From contig CAIPOI010000002.1 of assembly GCA_903866625.1 (NCBI GenBank), positions 37,063-101,062 on the forward strand: DNA of 64,000 nucleotides, in the 5' to 3' direction. The translations under genes were made by a program, and so were the position numbers. Of the stretch, positions 35,504-43,330 are shown one piece after another; the first letter of the stretch is position 1, and the number at the start of each line of letters is the position of its first letter. This DNA is from an uncultured archaeon. GTDB taxonomy: Archaea; Nanobdellota; Nanobdellia; Pacearchaeales; GW2011-AR1. The notes below the pieces were generated by a model, which saw only the letters and a list, made by a program, of their open reading frames with translations, ran no database searches and was not told the DNA's origin.

Positions 35504-35890
35504 TTATTCTCTTCTCAACAAATAACCTCTGCAATTTTCACTCTGGCACTCGCATTTTATTCGGATAGCATCAGGGCCTTCTGTTCGGTTATAATCAACA
35601 GTTATCTCTTCTCCAGCCAGGATGGGTCTAAGTGAAAAAAGACAAGGTGTTGAAGAAGCATCAATAAGTGTTGATAGCTCTGAATTAGGATTGCAAGAAT
35701 GATTAACATAATTTAATACTTCTTCATCAGAGACCCATAAATTTGTAGCAATTCTAGCACATCTCGGTAGTGGTTTATTAAAGACTTTGCTAAGTGGAAT
35801 TTCATAAAAAGTTTCTCTATCCGAGATTTGTCTTTCTGTAAATATTCCTGTTCCGTGTATTCTACTTGGTTTTTTTACTAGATGATTCAT
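35504..35890 (-). CDS. SET-domain protein lysine methyltransferase
   Basis: RIHGTGIFT, NHSCNPN and EEITVDY, plus post-SET CECQSENC. The ATG at 35890 lies 1 nt after the upstream stop; the track start at 35956 overlaps by 65 nt. Confidence 0.8.
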   Translation of the reverse strand: MNHLVKKPSRIHGTGIFTERQISDRETFYEIPLSKVFNKPLPRCARIATNLWVSDEEVLNYVNHSCNPNSELSTLIDASSTPCLFSLRPILAGEEITVDYNRTEGPDAIRIKCECQSENCRGYLLRRE

Positions 35891-35891
35891 T

Positions 35892-36287
35892 TTATCCTCC
35901 AAACTTTGGACCAAAATCCCGCAGCCAAGCTTCTGATCTAAACTGTCCAAGCCCATTAAGAATTCCAGTAATTTTTTGCACGAGAGTTGTACTTTTCTTT
36001 CTCTTTTCTATCTCAGTAAGTAATGTTTGTCTTACATATTCGACTTCTTGAGGGCCAATTTGTCTTCCAAAATGTATTCCATCCATAAGAAGGAGAAAAT
36101 AACCTTCATGAGCTACTTCTTTAGGTGCGGCAAATTTCTTAGGATAAGATTCATGTAGGGCTTGTTCTAGTCCAATCTGATAATTCTCTAGTGCGTGAAT
36201 TCTATATTGTCCGCCATAGCCTCTTAAATCATTATCAAGATGTTTGAGATGCTCTCTTACATAAGGGGGTAAATAATGTTTTGTCAT
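35892..36287 (-). CDS. Hypothetical protein (operon member)
   Basis: 131 aa. 4-nt overlap with the upstream methyltransferase gene. No family recognised. Confidence 0.5.
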   Translation of the reverse strand: MTKHYLPPYVREHLKHLDNDLRGYGGQYRIHALENYQIGLEQALHESYPKKFAAPKEVAHEGYFLLLMDGIHFGRQIGPQEVEYVRQTLLTEIEKRKKSTTLVQKITGILNGLGQFRSEAWLRDFGPKFGG

Positions 36288-37039
36288 TTTGTTACTTTAA
36301 ACCCCTGGAAGATATCGTGTTCTCTATAATTTCTCCAGTAATCTAGAGGTAGTGTTAATAATCCCTCTGTAGAGACCACATTTCGACAGCTATACCATTC
36401 AATTTTTTTAAATCCGGCTCTTGCAGCGGCTTCTTGATAACTGCTTTTAGGCCAATCATTTATTTCTGCACTAAACTGTTGTTCTCCAACAGTTCTTGTA
36501 AATCTAAATCTCGGAATATTTGGAGATTCGGGTAAGGATTCAATTCTTTCGTAAACTCTATCGCTATTTGCTCTTCCACCATTAAATCCTTGCTCAACAA
36601 GATGGTTTTGAAAACCTATGAAATCAGCATTTTTTAATAGATGCGGATAAACTCTTGAAAACACTTCGTTCATTTGTTTCTGACTTCTTATATAGTTAAG
36701 CATAAGAATAGAAACCGCATGATCAAATGTAGGTCTTAATTCAGGTAATTTTTCTGCATCCAAACAATAATAGTCTATGCCTTGTTTTCTTTTCGTTTCT
36801 TCCGCATTTGCTAAGTCTATCATTTTTTGTGAGCTATCTATTCCTAAAATGCAGGCACCCATTTCTGCCAGTATTCTGCTGGTATAACCATATCCACAAC
36901 CAATATCAAGAATATGTTTGTTCTTTATGTTTCCAAGAAGCATAAGGAGTGTTGGAGTAATAGAATATCTTTTTACATAATGTGTTTCATCTGCTTCTTG
37001 ATATTTTTTAGCAAGTGCGTCGAATTGTGGATCTGTCAT
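36284..37039 (-). CDS. Class I SAM-dependent methyltransferase
   Basis: Motif I ILDIGCGYGYTSRILAEMG. Post-I ILGIDSS. Confidence 0.75.
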   Translation of the reverse strand: MTDPQFDALAKKYQEADETHYVKRYSITPTLLMLLGNIKNKHILDIGCGYGYTSRILAEMGACILGIDSSQKMIDLANAEETKRKQGIDYYCLDAEKLPELRPTFDHAVSILMLNYIRSQKQMNEVFSRVYPHLLKNADFIGFQNHLVEQGFNGGRANSDRVYERIESLPESPNIPRFRFTRTVGEQQFSAEINDWPKSSYQEAAARAGFKKIEWYSCRNVVSTEGLLTLPLDYWRNYREHDIFQGFKVTK

Positions 37040-37479
37040 TTTCTCTCTCCAATTAATTGTTTTCTTTTTGCTTCAAGATGTTCAATCTCTATTCTTATAA
37101 AATTTCTAACACCAAATATAAGTAAAAATGAAAATACAAGCCCAATTTCCATACCAACAACAAGATTTTTGAAAGTATATCCAATCAAGGCACCAGCAAC
37201 AACAAAATTTATAACTAACTTAGAGATTTCTATATTTCTCAGTTTATGAAGCGGATTCTTAAATAATTTTACTAAATTATCTATAAGAATGAACACGCCC
37301 AGAGCTGCAGCTATACTTCTTACTATAGAAACATCTAATTGCTCTTCTTGAAGTGCACTTTCTGCAGCAAATTTTGCAGTCTCTAATCTATTTATGGGTT
37401 CTTCTAAAGTGCTTGGCATAATGGTTTCAGAATTATTTATAAGTCCCTGCTCGGCTTTCATTAAAGTTAAATCATTCAT
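37036..37479 (-). CDS. Hypothetical membrane protein (about 3 TM)
   Basis: Hydrophobic segments AAALGVFILI, FVVAGALIGY and GLVFSFLLIFGV. Overlaps both neighbours by 4 nt. Confidence 0.5.
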   Translation of the reverse strand: MNDLTLMKAEQGLINNSETIMPSTLEEPINRLETAKFAAESALQEEQLDVSIVRSIAAALGVFILIDNLVKLFKNPLHKLRNIEISKLVINFVVAGALIGYTFKNLVVGMEIGLVFSFLLIFGVRNFIRIEIEHLEAKRKQLIGERK

Positions 37480-37649
37480 CTTAACTCCTCCACAAATCCT
37501 TCAGGATTTGCTTCTTCAAGAATATCTATTTGTATTCTTACAAGCATGGAAGGTTTAACATGCTCGGAAAGTATGCTTGGAATAACAATCACCGATTGCT
37601 TGCCGTGCTTGGCAATTCTTTTTGTTATTGTGAATGTTTGTTTTTTCAT
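37476..37649 (-). CDS. Unannotated 57-aa AbrB/SpoVT-like (swapped-hairpin) small protein, paralogue of 42924..43094
   Basis: Below ORF-track cutoff. My translation is MKKQTFTITKRIAKHGKQSVIVIPSILSEHVKPSMLVRIQIDILEEANPEGFVEELR. Its TGA overlaps the ATG of the next gene (ATGA). About 60% identical to its paralogue over 40 aa. Confidence 0.55.
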   Translation of the reverse strand: MKKQTFTITKRIAKHGKQSVIVIPSILSEHVKPSMLVRIQIDILEEANPEGFVEELR

Positions 37650-37655
37650 CGTCTC

Positions 37656-38366
37656 TTAGAAGCTATAGCCCAAGCTAATTCCTCCCCAGTTTAGATTTTC
37701 AATTTTACTTGAAACTCCTCTTTGAGCATTGAAGAAAGCATGGGCATTGAAATTCTTGTAAGAAACTCCGAGTTTTATTCCGGGAGTTAGATGTGCTAGA
37801 CCATAAGTACCATAGTAATTATTATTCACAGAGCTCGATAGTGAAGGAGTTAAATTCACTTTAACCTTGCTATCTACTACTGGAATTGTTTTAGAAACAC
37901 TTGCACAAAATCTATCTCCATTTTCAGTTAACTCCGTTTTGTTTAAATGATTCCAAAATACTTTTGCGTCAAATTTTCCAGAATAACTTAATGTCAGTCC
38001 TTCAACAGAATCATGATCTCCAAATCTCTCGTTAGGGTAGTCCCAATATTGAGCTGTTGCAGAAGCAGTTAAATTACTAGTTAATGGAACAGAGTAAGTT
38101 AAACAATAATCTCTTTCACTTATACTTCTCTCTGAAGTAAATTGATTCTGCCATACTCCTAATTCAAGTCCTTTTACCGGATTTATACTCATCCAATCTT
38201 GTCTGCATGTTTCATTTATCGCTGGTCCAGCAGGCGAAACAAAAGCAGATACTAATGAGCTTTGTACATAAGGTTTTGGAAGTTCAAATGCTTGAGATTT
38301 TTGGAAAGGCATTAAAGCACTAGCTCCAACTAATATTCCAGCAAGAATAGATTTTAGAGAGCTCAT
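37656..38366 (-). CDS. Signal-peptide protein resembling a bacterial outer-membrane beta-barrel (TorF/Gcw_chp-like putative porin)
   Basis: Signal peptide MSSLKSILAGILVGASALMPFQKSQA. Alternating-polarity strands. GLELGVWQNQ...ERDYCLTYSV...AQYWDYPNE...EGLTLSYSG. C-terminal ...GISLGYSF ends in an aromatic residue. Confidence 0.5.
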   Translation of the reverse strand: MSSLKSILAGILVGASALMPFQKSQAFELPKPYVQSSLVSAFVSPAGPAINETCRQDWMSINPVKGLELGVWQNQFTSERSISERDYCLTYSVPLTSNLTASATAQYWDYPNERFGDHDSVEGLTLSYSGKFDAKVFWNHLNKTELTENGDRFCASVSKTIPVVDSKVKVNLTPSLSSSVNNNYYGTYGLAHLTPGIKLGVSYKNFNAHAFFNAQRGVSSKIENLNWGGISLGYSF

Positions 38367-39454
38367 TTTTTACCTCCAAAACTATAGGTATAAGCAAAAT
38401 ATCCTGCATAATCAGGTTTTGTATTTTCACTGAAACTTGCTTGAGTCCAGATTCTAAAGTTTTTACCTAGATAAGAACTTAAACCAACTCTGAATCCATC
38501 ATTATTGTTAGAAAGATTTCTATTAACTTCTTGAACTAACATAACATTTTGAACGGGTCCATAAGAACCAATATTTTCTGCAAATCTAGCATATGATTGA
38601 TTATTTCTGCTTACACTAATGTCTCCACCAACATCTCCAAACTTTTCTCCGCATTGACTTTCAGCAGTCAAATAACTAAATTGACCAACTCCCCATGGCT
38701 GAGTTGGATCTGCCCAATATCCAGGTTCAGTTAATTCAGTATTGTTTGCAAAATCTGCTTCTATAGATCTGTTTATACAGAACATACTATTTCTTCCAAA
38801 TCTAATTCTTGCTTCTCTACAATTAACTTGAGCTTTATCTCCAACCTTAACGTGTCCGTTTATTCTATAGTCCGGATTAATTCTTGTACTATACGCAAGT
38901 TCAGCTACTCTTTCTTTTCCTTTATTCTGACCAAAACCAATTTCTGCTCTAGTATCTTTATCTAATTGATAAAAATTAACCGATCTCCAAGTACCAAGAT
39001 CATTAAATGAGATTTGATTCTGTAATTCTTTAGTTGGTTTTATAGCTAAACGGGCATTAACAGAGTCAACTAAATTTGATTTTTGAAAAGAATCATAAGC
39101 TACATCAAACCAGCCATGTTCATTTTCCAATCCTCCAAGAATTCTATAAGAATCTGTATTAGAATTCTCCCCTTCTCTTTGAACTAAACTAAGTTTAGCA
39201 CTTCTATTATCTAGCGTAAGACCATAGATATTTTTATCTCCTCTTGTTTCAACTACGGCCCTACTGTCTCCATATCTGTATAGTGTTTCAGTTATGGGTC
39301 TTACAGAATTTTCGACTACTACTCTTTCATCAAGTGTAGGTTTAAATGGTTGGTAGATATGCTCACCAGCAAAGCCAGGTATAACTGAGATTACTAGAGC
39401 AAGTGCTCCGGCTGTTAAGCTTCTAAATTTATTCTTTATTGTTTTTGTTTGCAT
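38363..39454 (-). CDS. Signal-peptide, beta-strand-rich secreted protein (beta-barrel-like)
   Basis: Signal peptide ...LTAGALALVISVIPGFAG. Strand-like alternation throughout. C-terminus ...YFAYTYSFGGKK. 4-nt overlap with the next gene. Confidence 0.5.
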   Translation of the reverse strand: MQTKTIKNKFRSLTAGALALVISVIPGFAGEHIYQPFKPTLDERVVVENSVRPITETLYRYGDSRAVVETRGDKNIYGLTLDNRSAKLSLVQREGENSNTDSYRILGGLENEHGWFDVAYDSFQKSNLVDSVNARLAIKPTKELQNQISFNDLGTWRSVNFYQLDKDTRAEIGFGQNKGKERVAELAYSTRINPDYRINGHVKVGDKAQVNCREARIRFGRNSMFCINRSIEADFANNTELTEPGYWADPTQPWGVGQFSYLTAESQCGEKFGDVGGDISVSRNNQSYARFAENIGSYGPVQNVMLVQEVNRNLSNNNDGFRVGLSSYLGKNFRIWTQASFSENTKPDYAGYFAYTYSFGGKK

Positions 39455-39467
39455 TTTGTTTCTCCTA

Positions 39468-39554
39468 TTATCTCAAGAATTCGCAGTCTTGAGGCGCTGC
39501 TGCACCTCTTCCTTTTTTACTTTTTGTTATCGACTTGTGAGTTTTTTGCTCAGT
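39468..39554 (-). pseudogene. Possible degenerate relic of a third AbrB-like leader ORF
   Basis: ATG-less frame TEQKTHKSITKSKKGRGAAAPQDCEFLR*. It shares ITK and the DNA string gaattcttga with the intact copy at 42924..43094. It is flanked by the same promoter and RBS strings. Confidence 0.25.
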
Positions 39555-39684
39555 CTAAGTCTATAATCTATACATAAATAACACATATTTGAAAGGTTTA
39601 AACTTTATTATTAAAGTATATATAGTAGTATAAATGTATATACTCAATCAAAAGGTTTATATATGGGTGATACATGGGGAGTGT

Positions 39685-40038
39685 ATGATAAATGCAATAG
39701 TAGACCAAAGAAGATTTGCGATAGTAAAAGCAAAAGAAAAAGCTGAGGCTTGGGCTTGCATCGATGATGGACGAGAAATAACTCTAATTGTTGAAGAATC
39801 TAAAATAAATAATATAAAACCTATAAAAAAAGAGAAAGATTTTAGATTAATCACTTTTGATGCAAACCTAGATTTTTCACTAACCGGTTTTATTTCGAAT
39901 ATTTCTAATAAATTAGCAGAAGCTAAAATTCCTATCTTTGTAATTTCTGCATTTTCTACAGATCATATTTTAGTTAAAGAGCAATATTTGAAGAATACAA
40001 CTAAGCAATTAGAAGCACTATACTTCAAGGTAATATGA
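39685..40038 (+). CDS. ACT-domain-like small protein
   Basis: FSLTGFISNISNKLAEAKIPIFVISAFSTDHILV matches the ACT_7-type pattern. The ATG at 39685 is preferred because the TATA-like aaagtatatatag lies at 39613..39625. Confidence 0.5.
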   Translation: MINAIVDQRRFAIVKAKEKAEAWACIDDGREITLIVEESKINNIKPIKKEKDFRLITFDANLDFSLTGFISNISNKLAEAKIPIFVISAFSTDHILVKEQYLKNTTKQLEALYFKVI

Positions 40039-40916
40039 AACGAAAACTTGTAAAACAGGGTGCAGCAACTATGATGATTAGTTTGCCAACTAAATGGATT
40101 AAAGAAAATAGTCTTAACAAAGGAGACGAAGTTGATGTAATTGAATCAGAAAAAGATCTTATTATTTCTCGCGAATCTAAAGAAATAAAAAAAGAAACAG
40201 AGATAACTATAACTGTTCCTCTTCAAACAGCAGTCCAAGTTATGATTACTAATGCTTATAGAGCAGATTATCATAAAGTAAAGGTAAACTTTAAGGATAA
40301 GAGAATTTATCCAATGATCAAACAGTTAGTTGATGATCAATTATTGGGTTATGAAATAATAAAGAAAGAAGAAAACTATTGTATCATAGAAAACATAGCT
40401 TCTTTGACAGAAACGCAATTTGATAATATCTTTTCAAAGCTTCTTATGAATGTTGAAGAAACTTTTGATTATGCAGAACAATTATTTAATGGTGAACGAG
40501 TAAATTTTGAAACAACTCAGAATAAAACTAAAGAGTTTGATAATCTTTGCAGAAGATTGATTTTTAGAGAGAGAATGTCTAAGTCTGAATTAAGGGTAGA
40601 TTTTCATTCTGAACTTATGCATGCTCAAAGAGAGATTTATTTGTTATTAACCTATCTAAGCAAAAATAAATTTAAAACTGATAAGACTGAATTAGATTTA
40701 CTAAGAGAATGCAGAAAAGCTTTTGAAATGCTAAAAGAAGCTTATTACACAAAAAGTATTTCTACAATAGAAAAATTAATAGAATTTGAACATGAAGAAT
40801 ACAAAAAAGCTTACAAAGATTTAGAAAAAAGTAATCCAATTATTATTCATCATTTAATGAATGCTTTAAGAGGATTTTATTTGTGTGCTTCGCCTTTAGC
40901 AGGTATACTCATCTGA
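40035..40916 (+). CDS. AbrB/SpoVT-domain plus PhoU-like domain regulator
   Basis: The N-terminal RKLVKQGAATMMISLPTKWIKENSLNKGDEVDVIE is AbrB-like. The remainder is helical and PhoU-like. Confidence 0.65.
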   Translation: MKRKLVKQGAATMMISLPTKWIKENSLNKGDEVDVIESEKDLIISRESKEIKKETEITITVPLQTAVQVMITNAYRADYHKVKVNFKDKRIYPMIKQLVDDQLLGYEIIKKEENYCIIENIASLTETQFDNIFSKLLMNVEETFDYAEQLFNGERVNFETTQNKTKEFDNLCRRLIFRERMSKSELRVDFHSELMHAQREIYLLLTYLSKNKFKTDKTELDLLRECRKAFEMLKEAYYTKSISTIEKLIEFEHEEYKKAYKDLEKSNPIIIHHLMNALRGFYLCASPLAGILI

Positions 40917-42934
40917 GATTTTACTTGGATATTCTGATATCTCTCAAAATGAGTTTCTCCACTATCATCTGTAGCTAACCAAAAAGCAACCGCTCTATCA
41001 ATTATTTCTCTTTTCTCTGCAGGTATAAATGTATTATATCCCGGAATACATTTTGTTATTTTATCATTCTTATTAATAAGTCCAGTTCCGTTTACTTGGA
41101 TTTGTTTAGGATAATAACTAAAATCTTGTGCTCTTAATGAACCAATTATCTCTGAAGGTGAAACCAAACCCCCATTTAGGCATCTATTTTCTTGAAGTTG
41201 TTCAAAACTATATCTTTCTTGAGCTTTTGCTATGGCTGTTCTTATCTCGCTCGGACTGCATAAAACTCTTGCATAAACTTCTTCTAGAGAATCTCCAAAT
41301 CTGTAATTGCCTTGGATATACTTAGCAGTGTGAATCCATTTTCTCCATCCTTGAAGATTTAAATCATTAGTTGAAGCTACCCCTCTTTCTCTTGTAGATT
41401 CTATTATAAAGTTTTTAGGAGTAAATGAACTAGTTCTCTCTTCATCAAAGTCCACTTTATCTTTTGATAATGCCATACTCCTTATCATTGATAATGTAAG
41501 TCTTTTATCTAATCCGGGATGTATTCTAAAGAATCCATCAAAATCTTTCATATCCTGACTTTCTAAAATTTCTTTGCTTTCTAAACCTTGCTTATAGTAC
41601 TTAGCAAACATATCTGGCCCATAAGCAACTTCATAATTGATTGTAGCCGCTTTTCCAGGAGAATCAGCCATTAATCCCGTTCTTGTCTGGCATCTTAGAA
41701 CATCACTCAAGGTTGGAATCCTCTCATTATTCTGACTTGAACTAAATGCTCCGGCAGATATTCCCCAAGAAGCAGCAAATCCAAGACATAAAAGAGAGCC
41801 ACCCAAGGCAGCATATTTTTTTACTGCGTCTACTACTTCTTCTCTAGTAGTTCTTGTAGCATCTTTAAATCTTAATTCTGCTTGATAGACACTGGTTATT
41901 GGTCTTTTTGGTTTTGTAGATAACATATCGTATAAGAAGCTCCTAATATATCTTGGAGCTCGCTCTAACCTTTCTTTTAATTCTGTTTCATGTTCTTCTA
42001 AAGAAATAGATTCTAAGTCCCTATCTCCTTCCCTTAATTTAACTATAAACTCTGCGCCGCCAATAGATAATTTTCTTCCATTCTTATCTTCAACTAAACT
42101 ATAATCAAATAATTTTCTCCCAGTTACTATTTCATATAATACTGCGCCAATTGCATAAATTTCTTCTCTTTCTGTATATTTACTCGGAATTCCTGTTGCA
42201 CAAGCGTTTAACAGTACAGGATGAGTAGCAGAAGTAGAACCTCTTGTTGGAACTGCTTCAGATTCTATTTCCATTTTCATTGCAGCATTTTGCAAATCAG
42301 TCACTATAACTCCTTCCCTTCTCCGAGGTACAATCATATTTTCAGCACTGATATCTCTATGTAAAATACCATTATCATGCAAATATGCAAATGCTTCTAA
42401 TATTGGAGTAAAAAATCTCTTTAGAGCTTTTCTTTCCCTTACCCTATTTGCATCCCTAATATACCCTCTAACAGTTTGTCCTTCAATATAATCTTCAGCA
42501 TTAACAGTTCTACCATCAGGTAACTGAAAACTATCTGCAGTTCTAACAATATAAGGATGACTTAGTTTTCCAGAGATAATTGCCTCTTGCAAATCAATAT
42601 TTCTTCTACTTCTATTAATCTTAGCATTTACAGAGCTTACAATGGAATTTGGTTCAGGTACTTTTACTACAACGTCTCTTTGTAGATTACCATTAGAATG
42701 TACTGCTTTGTAGACTACCCTATTACTTCCTTCATTATACCACAGACCTCTGTTTAGCGGTCTACCGATAAGAGTATATCCTCTTTGAGTAATCGCTTCT
42801 AAATCATTTTTGCTTAGTCCTGGAAATTCTGTCTTAGGATCTTGATTTACTATTCTCTCTGCTTGAGTTAGTAATTCTTGAGTATCAGTCATTCTTGCTT
42901 GATCGGGTTTTTGTTCTAAAGTTTTAGTTTGCAT
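40877..42934 (-). CDS. Membrane-spanning protein kinase-like protein (N-terminal ePK-like domain, 1 TM, ~290-aa C-terminal extracytoplasmic domain)
   Basis: VVVKV (beta3 Lys), HRDISAENM (catalytic loop without the Lys), VTDLQ (in place of DFG), EIYAIGAVLYEIVTG. TM helix AALGGSLLCLGFAASWGISAGAF. ATG at 42934; the track uses GTG at 42949. Confidence 0.65.
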   Translation of the reverse strand: MQTKTLEQKPDQARMTDTQELLTQAERIVNQDPKTEFPGLSKNDLEAITQRGYTLIGRPLNRGLWYNEGSNRVVYKAVHSNGNLQRDVVVKVPEPNSIVSSVNAKINRSRRNIDLQEAIISGKLSHPYIVRTADSFQLPDGRTVNAEDYIEGQTVRGYIRDANRVRERKALKRFFTPILEAFAYLHDNGILHRDISAENMIVPRRREGVIVTDLQNAAMKMEIESEAVPTRGSTSATHPVLLNACATGIPSKYTEREEIYAIGAVLYEIVTGRKLFDYSLVEDKNGRKLSIGGAEFIVKLREGDRDLESISLEEHETELKERLERAPRYIRSFLYDMLSTKPKRPITSVYQAELRFKDATRTTREEVVDAVKKYAALGGSLLCLGFAASWGISAGAFSSSQNNERIPTLSDVLRCQTRTGLMADSPGKAATINYEVAYGPDMFAKYYKQGLESKEILESQDMKDFDGFFRIHPGLDKRLTLSMIRSMALSKDKVDFDEERTSSFTPKNFIIESTRERGVASTNDLNLQGWRKWIHTAKYIQGNYRFGDSLEEVYARVLCSPSEIRTAIAKAQERYSFEQLQENRCLNGGLVSPSEIIGSLRAQDFSYYPKQIQVNGTGLINKNDKITKCIPGYNTFIPAEKREIIDRAVAFWLATDDSGETHFERYQNIQVKSQMSIPAKGEAHK

Positions 42935-43094
42935 TTTTCTCCTCCGCACCCAAGATATCTATATTTAGTTGAACAATTGTTCCTGGTTTTAACTGCGATT
43001 CAAGAATTCTAGGAATAACTATTACTGCTTGTGAGCCATGCTTTGCTATCTTCTTTGTAATAATGAATTTTTTTGTTGGGTTTTGGTTTTCCAT
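42924..43094 (-). CDS. Unannotated 56-aa AbrB/SpoVT-like small protein, paralogue of 37476..37649
   Basis: Below ORF-track cutoff. My translation is MENQNPTKKFIITKKIAKHGSQAVIVIPRILESQLKPGTIVQLNIDILGAEEKNAN. Its last 11 nt overlap the kinase start. Confidence 0.55.
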   Translation of the reverse strand: MENQNPTKKFIITKKIAKHGSQAVIVIPRILESQLKPGTIVQLNIDILGAEEKNAN

Positions 43095-43330
43095 GTTATT
43101 TTGTTACTACTTTTTAGTCATATATTATACATAAATTATGTATAAATCCTTTATAAACCTTGTGGTTTTGTCTTAATTATAAAGTGACACCTATTATCCA
43201 AAACACATTATACCAAAACTTTAAATACTCCGATTTTGGTTTTATATAATAAGAAGTAGTTGAGACAATGTTGAGTTGAGTAAAACGAATTCTTATAGAA
43301 ATAAACAACATTGGAGGAAAAAATTTAAGA

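Follow-up and report, generated by a model that had tools for sequence, protein, structure and literature searches.

A conserved archaeal family of predicted outer-membrane-type beta-barrels in genomes without a detectable Omp85 insertase

Two exported proteins at the head of an archaeal operon

The stretch of DNA analysed here, called the window throughout, comprises 64,000 nucleotides (nt) from an uncultured archaeon of the Pacearchaeales (assembly GCA_903866625.1, contig CAIPOI010000002.1, positions 37,063 to 101,062 of the forward strand). Two adjoining genes at window positions 37656-39454 encode exported proteins of 363 and 236 amino acids (aa) and head a tightly packed seven-gene operon on the minus strand, in which they are followed by genes for a 57-aa AbrB-like protein, a 147-aa membrane protein, an S-adenosylmethionine (SAM)-dependent methyltransferase, a 131-aa protein and a SET-domain protein. 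The stop codon of the 363-aa gene and the start codon of the 236-aa gene share 4 nt (an ATGA overlap), through which the two genes are translationally coupled, as judged from their sequence. An initial annotation of this DNA proposed that both products are beta-barrels in the style of bacterial outer-membrane proteins (OMPs), and offered four explanations for their presence in an archaeon: a recent bacterial transfer, a contaminating or chimeric segment, a misread soluble beta-sandwich, or an unusual envelope or host-interaction function. Membrane beta-barrels are regarded as confined to the outer membranes of bacteria, mitochondria and plastids, and their assembly is thought to need insertases of the Omp85 family. 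I report that a confident structure prediction gives the 236-aa protein the fold of an OMP-type barrel, that it belongs to an established archaeal family, and that Omp85 is absent from all 22 genomes with this family in which it was sought.

Predicted fold of the 236-aa protein

The translated open reading frame (ORF) of the 236-aa gene begins as expected of a Sec substrate, with a basic n-region that leads into a hydrophobic core free of charges and then into a cleavage site made of small residues (MSSLKSILAGILVGASALMPFQKSQA/FE, the slash marking cleavage), and ends in ...GISLGYSF, an aromatic-terminal beta-signal. Both termini agree with those quoted in the initial annotation. The same features recur across the family described below: of its 148 full-length members, 128 have a signal-peptide-like N-terminus, that is, an uncharged hydrophobic segment, and 111 (75%) have an aromatic C-terminal residue, which is F in 104.

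Given an alignment of 13 sequences, AlphaFold2 modelled the protein with a predicted local distance difference test score (pLDDT) of 84.9 and a predicted template-modelling (TM) score of 0.75, and all five models reached a pLDDT of at least 77.6. In the model a signal helix precedes 12 long strands that are linked into hairpins; as is classical for OMPs, the connections are by turns short (2-4 residues) and longer (loops of 7-14 residues for the most part). A Foldseek search of the PDB with this model yielded 204 matches at E<=1e-3, and 50 of the 50 listed are outer-membrane barrels. The best size-matched neighbours are all 12-stranded, namely NanC (2wjq, TM-scores 0.55/0.62), PcoB (7pge, 0.56/0.64) and VhGalP (8xua, 0.57/0.63), and further neighbours include Tsx, OmpG and the beta-domains of autotransporters. 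The viral structures of BFVD contributed only phage-encoded OMP-like barrels. The listed structural neighbours from the PDB and BFVD include no soluble fold, and no toxin fold was present among the listed Foldseek neighbours. The soluble beta-sandwich is rejected for this protein.

The alternation of polar and hydrophobic residues noticed at the outset was confirmed when the faces of the AlphaFold2-defined strands were scored on an alignment of 87 family sequences. In every strand one face is hydrophobic, its mean Kyte-Doolittle (KD) hydropathy lying between +0.55 and +2.0 and its share of charged residues at 2-13%, while the other face is polar. The polar face is the more conserved of the two (top-residue frequency 0.46 versus 0.36 for the hydrophobic face, Mann-Whitney p=0.004) and holds nine highly conserved columns against three. 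Six of the eight near-invariant residues lie on it (Q56, W72, E84, D86, W108 and Q215), the other two being G47, which belongs to a loop, and K159, which coincides with a bulge in a strand. Tyr and Trp residues are placed at the strand ends in a girdle-like manner. Conservation of the polar face is the reverse of what a soluble protein with a hydrophobic core would show, and therefore suggests a polar, functional lumen constrained in residue identity and a lipid-facing exterior that varies freely. The support for such a lumen is moderate, because in information content there is no significant difference between the faces (p=0.49).

The barrel might not be embedded in a membrane at all. It could be secreted or associated with the surface layer (S-layer), carry a hydrophobic ligand such as lipid, or form an oligomer that buries its hydrophobic faces, and such arrangements would sit easily with an archaeal cell, archaea having no known pathway for membrane beta-barrels. 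Dyad alternation by itself leaves undecided which face points outward, an assignment that here comes from conservation and from Foldseek alignments. I nevertheless regard a barrel outside the membrane as quite unlikely: all the listed structural neighbours are membrane barrels, the near-invariant polar and charged residues of the polar face fit a buried lumen better than an exposed surface, and the protein has both a terminal aromatic residue and the girdle-like Tyr/Trp residues. Furthermore, I know of no soluble 12-stranded barrel that is closed yet has neither a plug nor a helix at its centre.

The family in archaea: established but accessory

The 236-aa protein has no match in Pfam (E<=0.1) or NCBIfam (E<=1), and a profile of its family finds nothing among PDB sequences at E<=10. 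An exhaustive profile search collected 217 clusters (50% identity, E<=1e-3), mostly of 220-300 aa. When 87 members were scanned singly, Pfam returned only weak matches, and seven of the nine families matched are families of outer-membrane barrels: Autotransporter (three members), Gcw_chp (two, the best at 3.4e-4), the TonB barrel, OMP_b-brl, DUF481, Phage_OMP and YaiO. Membership of the TorF/Gcw_chp putative porins, with which the 236-aa protein had been associated, was not sustained, since the protein matches neither PF09694 at E<=0.1 nor TIGR02001 at E<=1 and distant family members stay below threshold. Over the 22 carrier genomes introduced below, PF09694 gave a single match, the barrel gene of genome G366, whose score of 23.1 bits falls short of the cut-off (24); the remaining 21, the window's genome among them, gave none. 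What is left is a resemblance, and possibly a distant common origin with Gcw_chp.

Of 401 high-quality genomes from the phylum, 22 contain members of the barrel family; these carriers are spread over 17 genera and, as listed, 14 families of one class. Among 61 close relatives four have the family, none of five genomes of the same genus does, and two of the 22 carrier genomes have two copies. Copies from placed archaeal genomes are dispersed over the family tree, and no member was found on viral contigs. The family is thus established in archaea, with a patchy spread among DPANN lineages of the Woesearchaeota type, but accessory, because it is present in so small a part of the phylum and of the close relatives. 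A full-text search of the literature found no description of such an archaeal barrel family, the nearest being one sentence that mentions a possible PopA or porin-like relative in Altiarchaeales (PMC12228718).

Some members are larger than the window protein. Three metagenome members (P0048, P0111 and P0147) have an N-terminal extension ahead of a C-terminal barrel; in some the signal peptide is followed by a helical domain of about 340 aa, which belongs to no known family, and then by the barrel, and another member has a lipobox-like LLPGC and a Pro-rich linker before its barrel. The N-terminal extensions match no passenger-domain family.

The locus is native to the archaeon

A barrel fold that is otherwise bacterial or organellar invites the suspicion that 37656-39454 is bacterial DNA, whether by contamination, a chimeric join or very recent import. 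The phylum does acquire bacterial genes, and one distant family member, at locus L042, has ambiguous neighbours: its contig has a bacterial look, since GroES/GroEL, an M23 peptidase and MshEN-T2SSE are encoded near the barrel gene. However, bacterial-type GroEL occurs in about 70 of the 401 phylum genomes, at 44-57% identity to the L042 copy (L042:8666-10677), and because it is so common the L042 GroEL is not diagnostic of a bacterial origin. The window's own genome has no bacterial-type GroEL.

The window itself is archaeal, since it encodes PriS, the small subunit of primase, and an aIF5B-type IF-2; the genome amounts to 725 kb on eight contigs. The exact 236-aa protein was found on eight contigs, and the order ACT, 363-aa, 236-aa, 57-aa, 147-aa, methyltransferase, 131-aa, SET and GTPase was reproduced in assemblies of at least four independent samples, one of them a contig of 76 kb. 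Related species, whose proteins at this locus are 53-64% identical, keep its flanks, with the kinase, the 293-aa AbrB-fold gene and the ACT gene on one side and the 57-aa AbrB gene, the GTPase and a flavin adenine dinucleotide (FAD)-binding protein on the other; the syntenic relatives encode diphthamide synthase. In other carriers, one of which was deposited as Candidatus Woesearchaeota, the barrel gene stands beside aRF1 or aIF5B. GC content is uniform along the window, in GC content at third codon positions the 46th and 4th genome percentiles are those of the two genes, and the codon-usage distances of both are typical for genome genes of equal length. The dispersal of the archaeal copies over the family tree and the failure of any bacterial Pfam family to claim the 236-aa protein also speak against a foreign segment. 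Because of the independent assemblies, the synteny in relatives and the native codon usage, contamination, a chimeric join and recent import are excluded for practical purposes, and I give them the very smallest weight of the alternatives considered here. Two of the four explanations first offered thereby fall away: a recent bacterial transfer is not borne out by a gene with native codon usage whose family spans 17 genera of an archaeal class, nor is a contaminant or chimera by a segment both of whose joins recur in at least four independent assemblies and whose relatives are syntenic.

Neighbouring genes and the variable cassette

The features of the locus are collected in Table 1.

Table 1. 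Features in and around the operon that contains the predicted barrel gene (window positions).
Feature	Position	Strand	Basis or remark
131-aa protein, then SET-domain protein; last genes of the operon	35504-36287	-	SET, E=8.9e-11
251-aa SAM-dependent methyltransferase	36284-37039	-	Methyltransf_25, E=1.8e-16
147-aa membrane protein	37036-37479	-	Same operon; 4-nt overlap with the neighbour on either side
57-aa AbrB-like mini-gene, 6 nt downstream of the barrel gene	37476-37649	-	Called in independent assemblies
236-aa ORF, exported, predicted 12-stranded OMP-type beta-barrel	37656-38366	-	ORF, AlphaFold2 and Foldseek
363-aa ORF, exported, beta-rich; first gene of the operon	38363-39454	-	ORF list
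Upstream intergenic region of the operon	39455-39633	-	Promoter and leader inferred from alignment with the kinase upstream region
134-aa ACT-domain protein and 293-aa protein with N-terminal AbrB/MazE fold; divergent pair	39634-40916	+	ACT_7, E=1.2e-15; MazE_antitoxin, E=2.8e-5
690-aa protein with N-terminal Ser/Thr kinase domain	40877-42949	-	Pkinase, E=7.4e-21

Neither the 57-aa protein (in Pfam) nor the 147-aa membrane protein (in Pfam and NCBIfam) has a family match. Homologs of the 57-aa gene adjoin the barrel gene at loci L001 and L041, and at L042 a 55-aa MazE-fold gene follows the barrel gene. The 293-aa protein is a putative regulator by virtue of its AbrB/MazE fold; a PhoU-type assignment was dropped for want of a match. 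The C-terminal extension of the 690-aa kinase, about 340 aa long, has no family match. When the upstream region of the operon (39425-39640) was aligned with that of the kinase gene (42905-43180), both on the minus strand, they were found to have in common a short TATA-like string and GGAG plus ATGCAAAC.AAAAC. The 363-aa protein begins with MQTKT, and the kinase ORF contains MQTKT as well, at an in-frame ATG five codons past its GTG start. Co-regulation of the operon and the kinase gene is only suggested by these short common stretches.

Similar genes recur at other barrel loci, as counted over 21 barrel-gene neighbourhoods. A Ser/Thr kinase lies near the barrel gene in six of the 21, and the 293-aa AbrB-fold family likewise in six; a TrmB-family regulator of the sugar-specific type is present in six other loci (L006, L027, L029, L031, L039 and L042), often divergently adjacent. 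A SET gene adjoins the barrel gene in four loci, an AbrB mini-gene lies near it in three, and methyltransferase genes recur beside family members. At L005:4937-6708, from a Woesearchaeota metagenome-assembled genome (MAG), the barrel gene begins within the end of a gene for a 355-aa kinase without the long C-terminal extension, and a SET gene and aRF1 follow. In one of the genomes with two barrel copies (G246), a gene of the TrmB cluster lies near both.

The 363-aa protein also has the N-terminus of an exported protein: its n-region is basic, its hydrophobic core is free of charges, and its cleavage site, made of small residues, reads ...PGFA/GE or ...FAG/E. Its C-terminus is ...YFAYTYSFGGKK, as originally quoted, and the last residues, ...YSFGGKK, make a non-canonical beta-signal. 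Even a profile search found only three homologs, at 53-79% identity, and none in the 61 relatives, in the 21 barrel neighbourhoods or elsewhere in the window's genome; Pfam, NCBIfam and PDB sequences gave no match. With four sequences AlphaFold2 reached a pLDDT of 32, and the model is unusable. A whole-protein dyad counter scored 8 for this protein against 7.2±2.0 in shuffles, which is no separation, and in an hhalign comparison with the barrel family the signal peptides alone aligned. On strand boundaries from the unreliable model, the hydrophobic face has a KD of +1.2 with 6% charged residues and the polar face a KD of -1.4 with 31%. Such a dyad pattern would fit a larger barrel, of about 16-18 strands, and would fit any amphipathic beta structure just as well. 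Of what had been claimed for this protein, then, the Sec signal and the C-terminus stand, and the alternation stands only on those unreliable boundaries. I treat it as a putative clade-specific exported partner, which may be another barrel, larger than the first, or may act as a helper; a soluble beta-sandwich is still a candidate fold for it.

In its four known genomes the 363-aa gene occupies the same locus, beside other exported beta-rich genes. The relatives have a third exported beta-rich protein there, of 236-237 aa and ending in ...LAVRGTF, upstream of the 363-type gene (L001:2605-3318; L055:4289-4999). In one relative the cassette contains genes for a 237-aa exported protein (...RGTF), a 362-aa protein and a 236-aa protein; in another, for the 237-aa type and proteins of 370, 136 and 236 aa, a 136-aa gene standing between the 363-type and barrel genes at L001:4429-4839; and in a third, for the 237-aa type and a 369-aa protein, with no barrel-family gene. 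The 237-aa type and the 136-aa gene are absent from the window. The locus behaves as a variable cassette. The 237-aa protein of the relatives was considered as a paralog of the barrel family and rejected, because the profile similarity is limited to the signal peptide.

Further exported candidates lie outside the window on the same contig, at L048:2996-6226 (G000:C2:157995-161225), where four tandem genes encode exported proteins of 254, 275, 266 and 248 aa that fall into two pairs of paralogs. All four end in an OMP-like manner (...SFGIEIKKRF, ...SFRLGAIYKF, ...GARAGFNFKY and ...SFSLGIFTRF), none has a match in Pfam or NCBIfam, and they are followed by a gene for a secreted 185-aa protein rich in Q, R, E and P. 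Among the 61 relatives, the tandem family was found only in this genome and in one genome of the same genus (2/61). A leader motif, [LF][KR][STNA][ILF][LITVA][AS][SAG] within the first 40 residues (for example LKSILAG, LKSILAS, LRSFIAS and FRSLTAG), occurs in seven of 827 ORFs against about 0.5 expected, with the limits that it was defined after the sequences had been viewed and that in the wider family it is present in only three of 149 members. The OMP-like candidates at 37656-39454 and L048 account for five of the seven.

A predicted barrel without a known insertase

Neither the window's genome nor any of the 21 other carrier genomes contains Omp85/BamA (PF01103); as positive controls, seven diderm bacteria were scanned with the same profile, and it was detected in them. 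The first proposal, a barrel of bacterial OMP type in an archaeon without the machinery for beta-barrel assembly (BAM), is thus supported for the 236-aa protein by the AlphaFold2 model, its Foldseek neighbours and the PF01103 scan, so far as predictions can carry it. Of the four explanations offered for it, only an unusual envelope or host-interaction function remains.

The interpretation I favour, and consider somewhat more probable than all others together, is that the 236-aa gene encodes a Sec-exported, single-chain, 12-stranded transmembrane channel, in the size class of NanC/KdgM, PcoB and Tsx, that is BAM-independent, accessory and regulated. With its conserved polar lumen and hydrophobic exterior, the barrel would sit in a lipid bilayer and let small solutes pass. 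It would fold into the bilayer spontaneously or with the aid of a helper not yet known, because no carrier genome tested contains Omp85/BamA. Its gene is an accessory one, set in a variable cassette of exported beta-rich genes and linked to the kinase, to AbrB-fold proteins or, in other lineages, to TrmB. The analysis itself establishes the ORFs, the predicted fold, the family with its distribution, the lack of BAM and the native origin; membrane residence, channel function and the target membrane are what I infer.

Several points count against this channel. Expression, localisation and pore activity are matters of prediction, and barrel closure and the orientation of the faces are taken from Foldseek alignments and conservation rather than measured. 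The whole-protein dyad counter scores 7 for the 236-aa protein against 4.8±1.7 in shuffles; because it does not discriminate, the support from alternation comes from the strand-resolved analysis, and there the statistically indistinguishable information content of the two faces must be counted on the negative side as well. In archaea no chaperone or insertase is known for a fully hydrophobic monomeric barrel, archaeal ether or isoprenoid lipids are untried as hosts for such barrels, and for no cell of the Woesearchaeota type is an outer membrane, or the insertion of proteins into a host, documented.

If the barrel is embedded in a membrane, the question becomes: whose membrane? One answer, a sub-case of the membrane-embedded barrel, is that the archaeon has an outer membrane of its own, so far unrecognised, in which the barrel resides, cells of the Woesearchaeota type being diderm and their exported barrel-like proteins serving as porins. 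A double membrane is documented in Altiarchaeales, a DPANN-associated group, which counts in favour of this answer. So do the classical OMP topology, with a signal peptide, an aromatic residue at the end and the short turns on the same side as the termini, as well as the second cluster of four exported genes with OMP-like C-termini in the same genome and the leader motif common to the OMP-like candidates. However, a core porin should be near-universal, whereas each of the families is patchy (the barrel family in 4/61 relatives and 22/401 phylum genomes, the 363-aa family in 1/61, the tandem family in 2/61); Omp85 is lacking; and the linkage to regulators and the variable cassette are typical of accessory functions. 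DPANN archaea that have been cultured and imaged by cryo-electron tomography have one membrane and an S-layer, with no molecules assigned to the structures through which they contact their hosts (PMC11329633). Overall, I judge a porin of the archaeon's own outer membrane to be unlikely, albeit with an appreciable share of the probability.

The destination I favour for the proposed channel is the membrane of a partner or host cell at a contact site, where it would serve as a nutrient conduit. It is favoured because the families are patchy, the cassette is variable, sensors are linked to the gene, and there are precedents of OMPs that act in another cell's membrane, namely PopA of Bdellovibrio and PorB of Neisseria (PMC12228718). 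The preference is slight: granted a membrane-embedded barrel, the host or partner membrane comes out only a little ahead of an outer membrane of the archaeon's own. The wider generalization, that DPANN archaea of the Woesearchaeota type deploy transmembrane barrels without Omp85 or BAM, from a fast-evolving cassette under kinases and regulators, into either a host membrane or an unseen outer membrane of their own, I hold tentatively, as having somewhat less than an even chance of being correct.

OMP-type barrels themselves are known; what is new is a conserved family of them in archaea that have neither Omp85 nor a known outer membrane. A conserved archaeal family with a confidently predicted OMP fold, no insertase and native codon usage points to BAM-independent biogenesis, to an unrecognised outer membrane, or to a tool that opens host membranes. 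Either membrane destination, if correct, would break the rule that membrane beta-barrels belong to bacteria and organelles only, and a host-opening tool would address how DPANN archaea obtain metabolites, a central open question. The mature 236-aa protein is small (about 210 residues), and so is directly accessible to refolding and bilayer electrophysiology.

Comparison with known systems

Set against the features of bacterial outer-membrane beta-barrels, the 236-aa protein has the signal peptide and the C-terminal beta-signal and, in the model, the closed barrel with an even number of strands and the dyad repeat; Omp85/BamA in the same genome is the feature it lacks. A beta pore-forming toxin was considered and rejected, the model being a complete single-chain barrel without a soluble domain.

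The closest likeness is to the KdgM/NanC channels (NanC, 2wjq/2wjr; VhGalP, 8xua), which are the best size-matched neighbours (TM-scores 0.55-0.63) and, as predicted for the window protein, are single-chain antiparallel barrels of 12 strands and about 205-210 residues when mature, made with a signal peptide. In bacteria these channels are regulated by substrate, and TrmB-type sugar regulators adjoin the barrel gene in six loci here. The family described here differs in sequence, with 8-13% identity in structural alignments and lumen residues of its own, and in its host, an archaeon without BAM or a known outer membrane. No relationship to KdgM (PF06178) emerged from profiles: the 236-aa protein has no Pfam match at E<=0.1, and the family profile has no PDB match at E<=10. 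PcoB (7pge), Tsx (1tlw), OmpG (2f1c/2iwv), EspP (2qom) and Hbp (3aeh) are likewise closed outer-membrane barrels, of 12-14 strands and at TM-scores of 0.5-0.64, to which the family has no sequence homology. The order of parts in P0048, P0111 and P0147, an extension followed by a C-terminal barrel, is similar to that of the autotransporters, whereas the window protein is a barrel only. Gcw_chp/TorF proteins resemble the family in length (about 230-280 aa), signal peptide and predicted porin-like barrel; they differ in that Gcw_chp is bacterial and this family DPANN-archaeal, and no member of the latter reaches the curated threshold. Finally, PopA is oligomeric and lipid-trapping, comes from a diderm bacterium with BAM, and is unrelated in sequence and in architecture to the monomeric 12-stranded model. 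What PopA of Bdellovibrio and PorB of Neisseria provide is a functional precedent: a barrel that a small predator or symbiont makes and that acts in the membrane of a prey or host cell, or of an organelle (PMC12228718).

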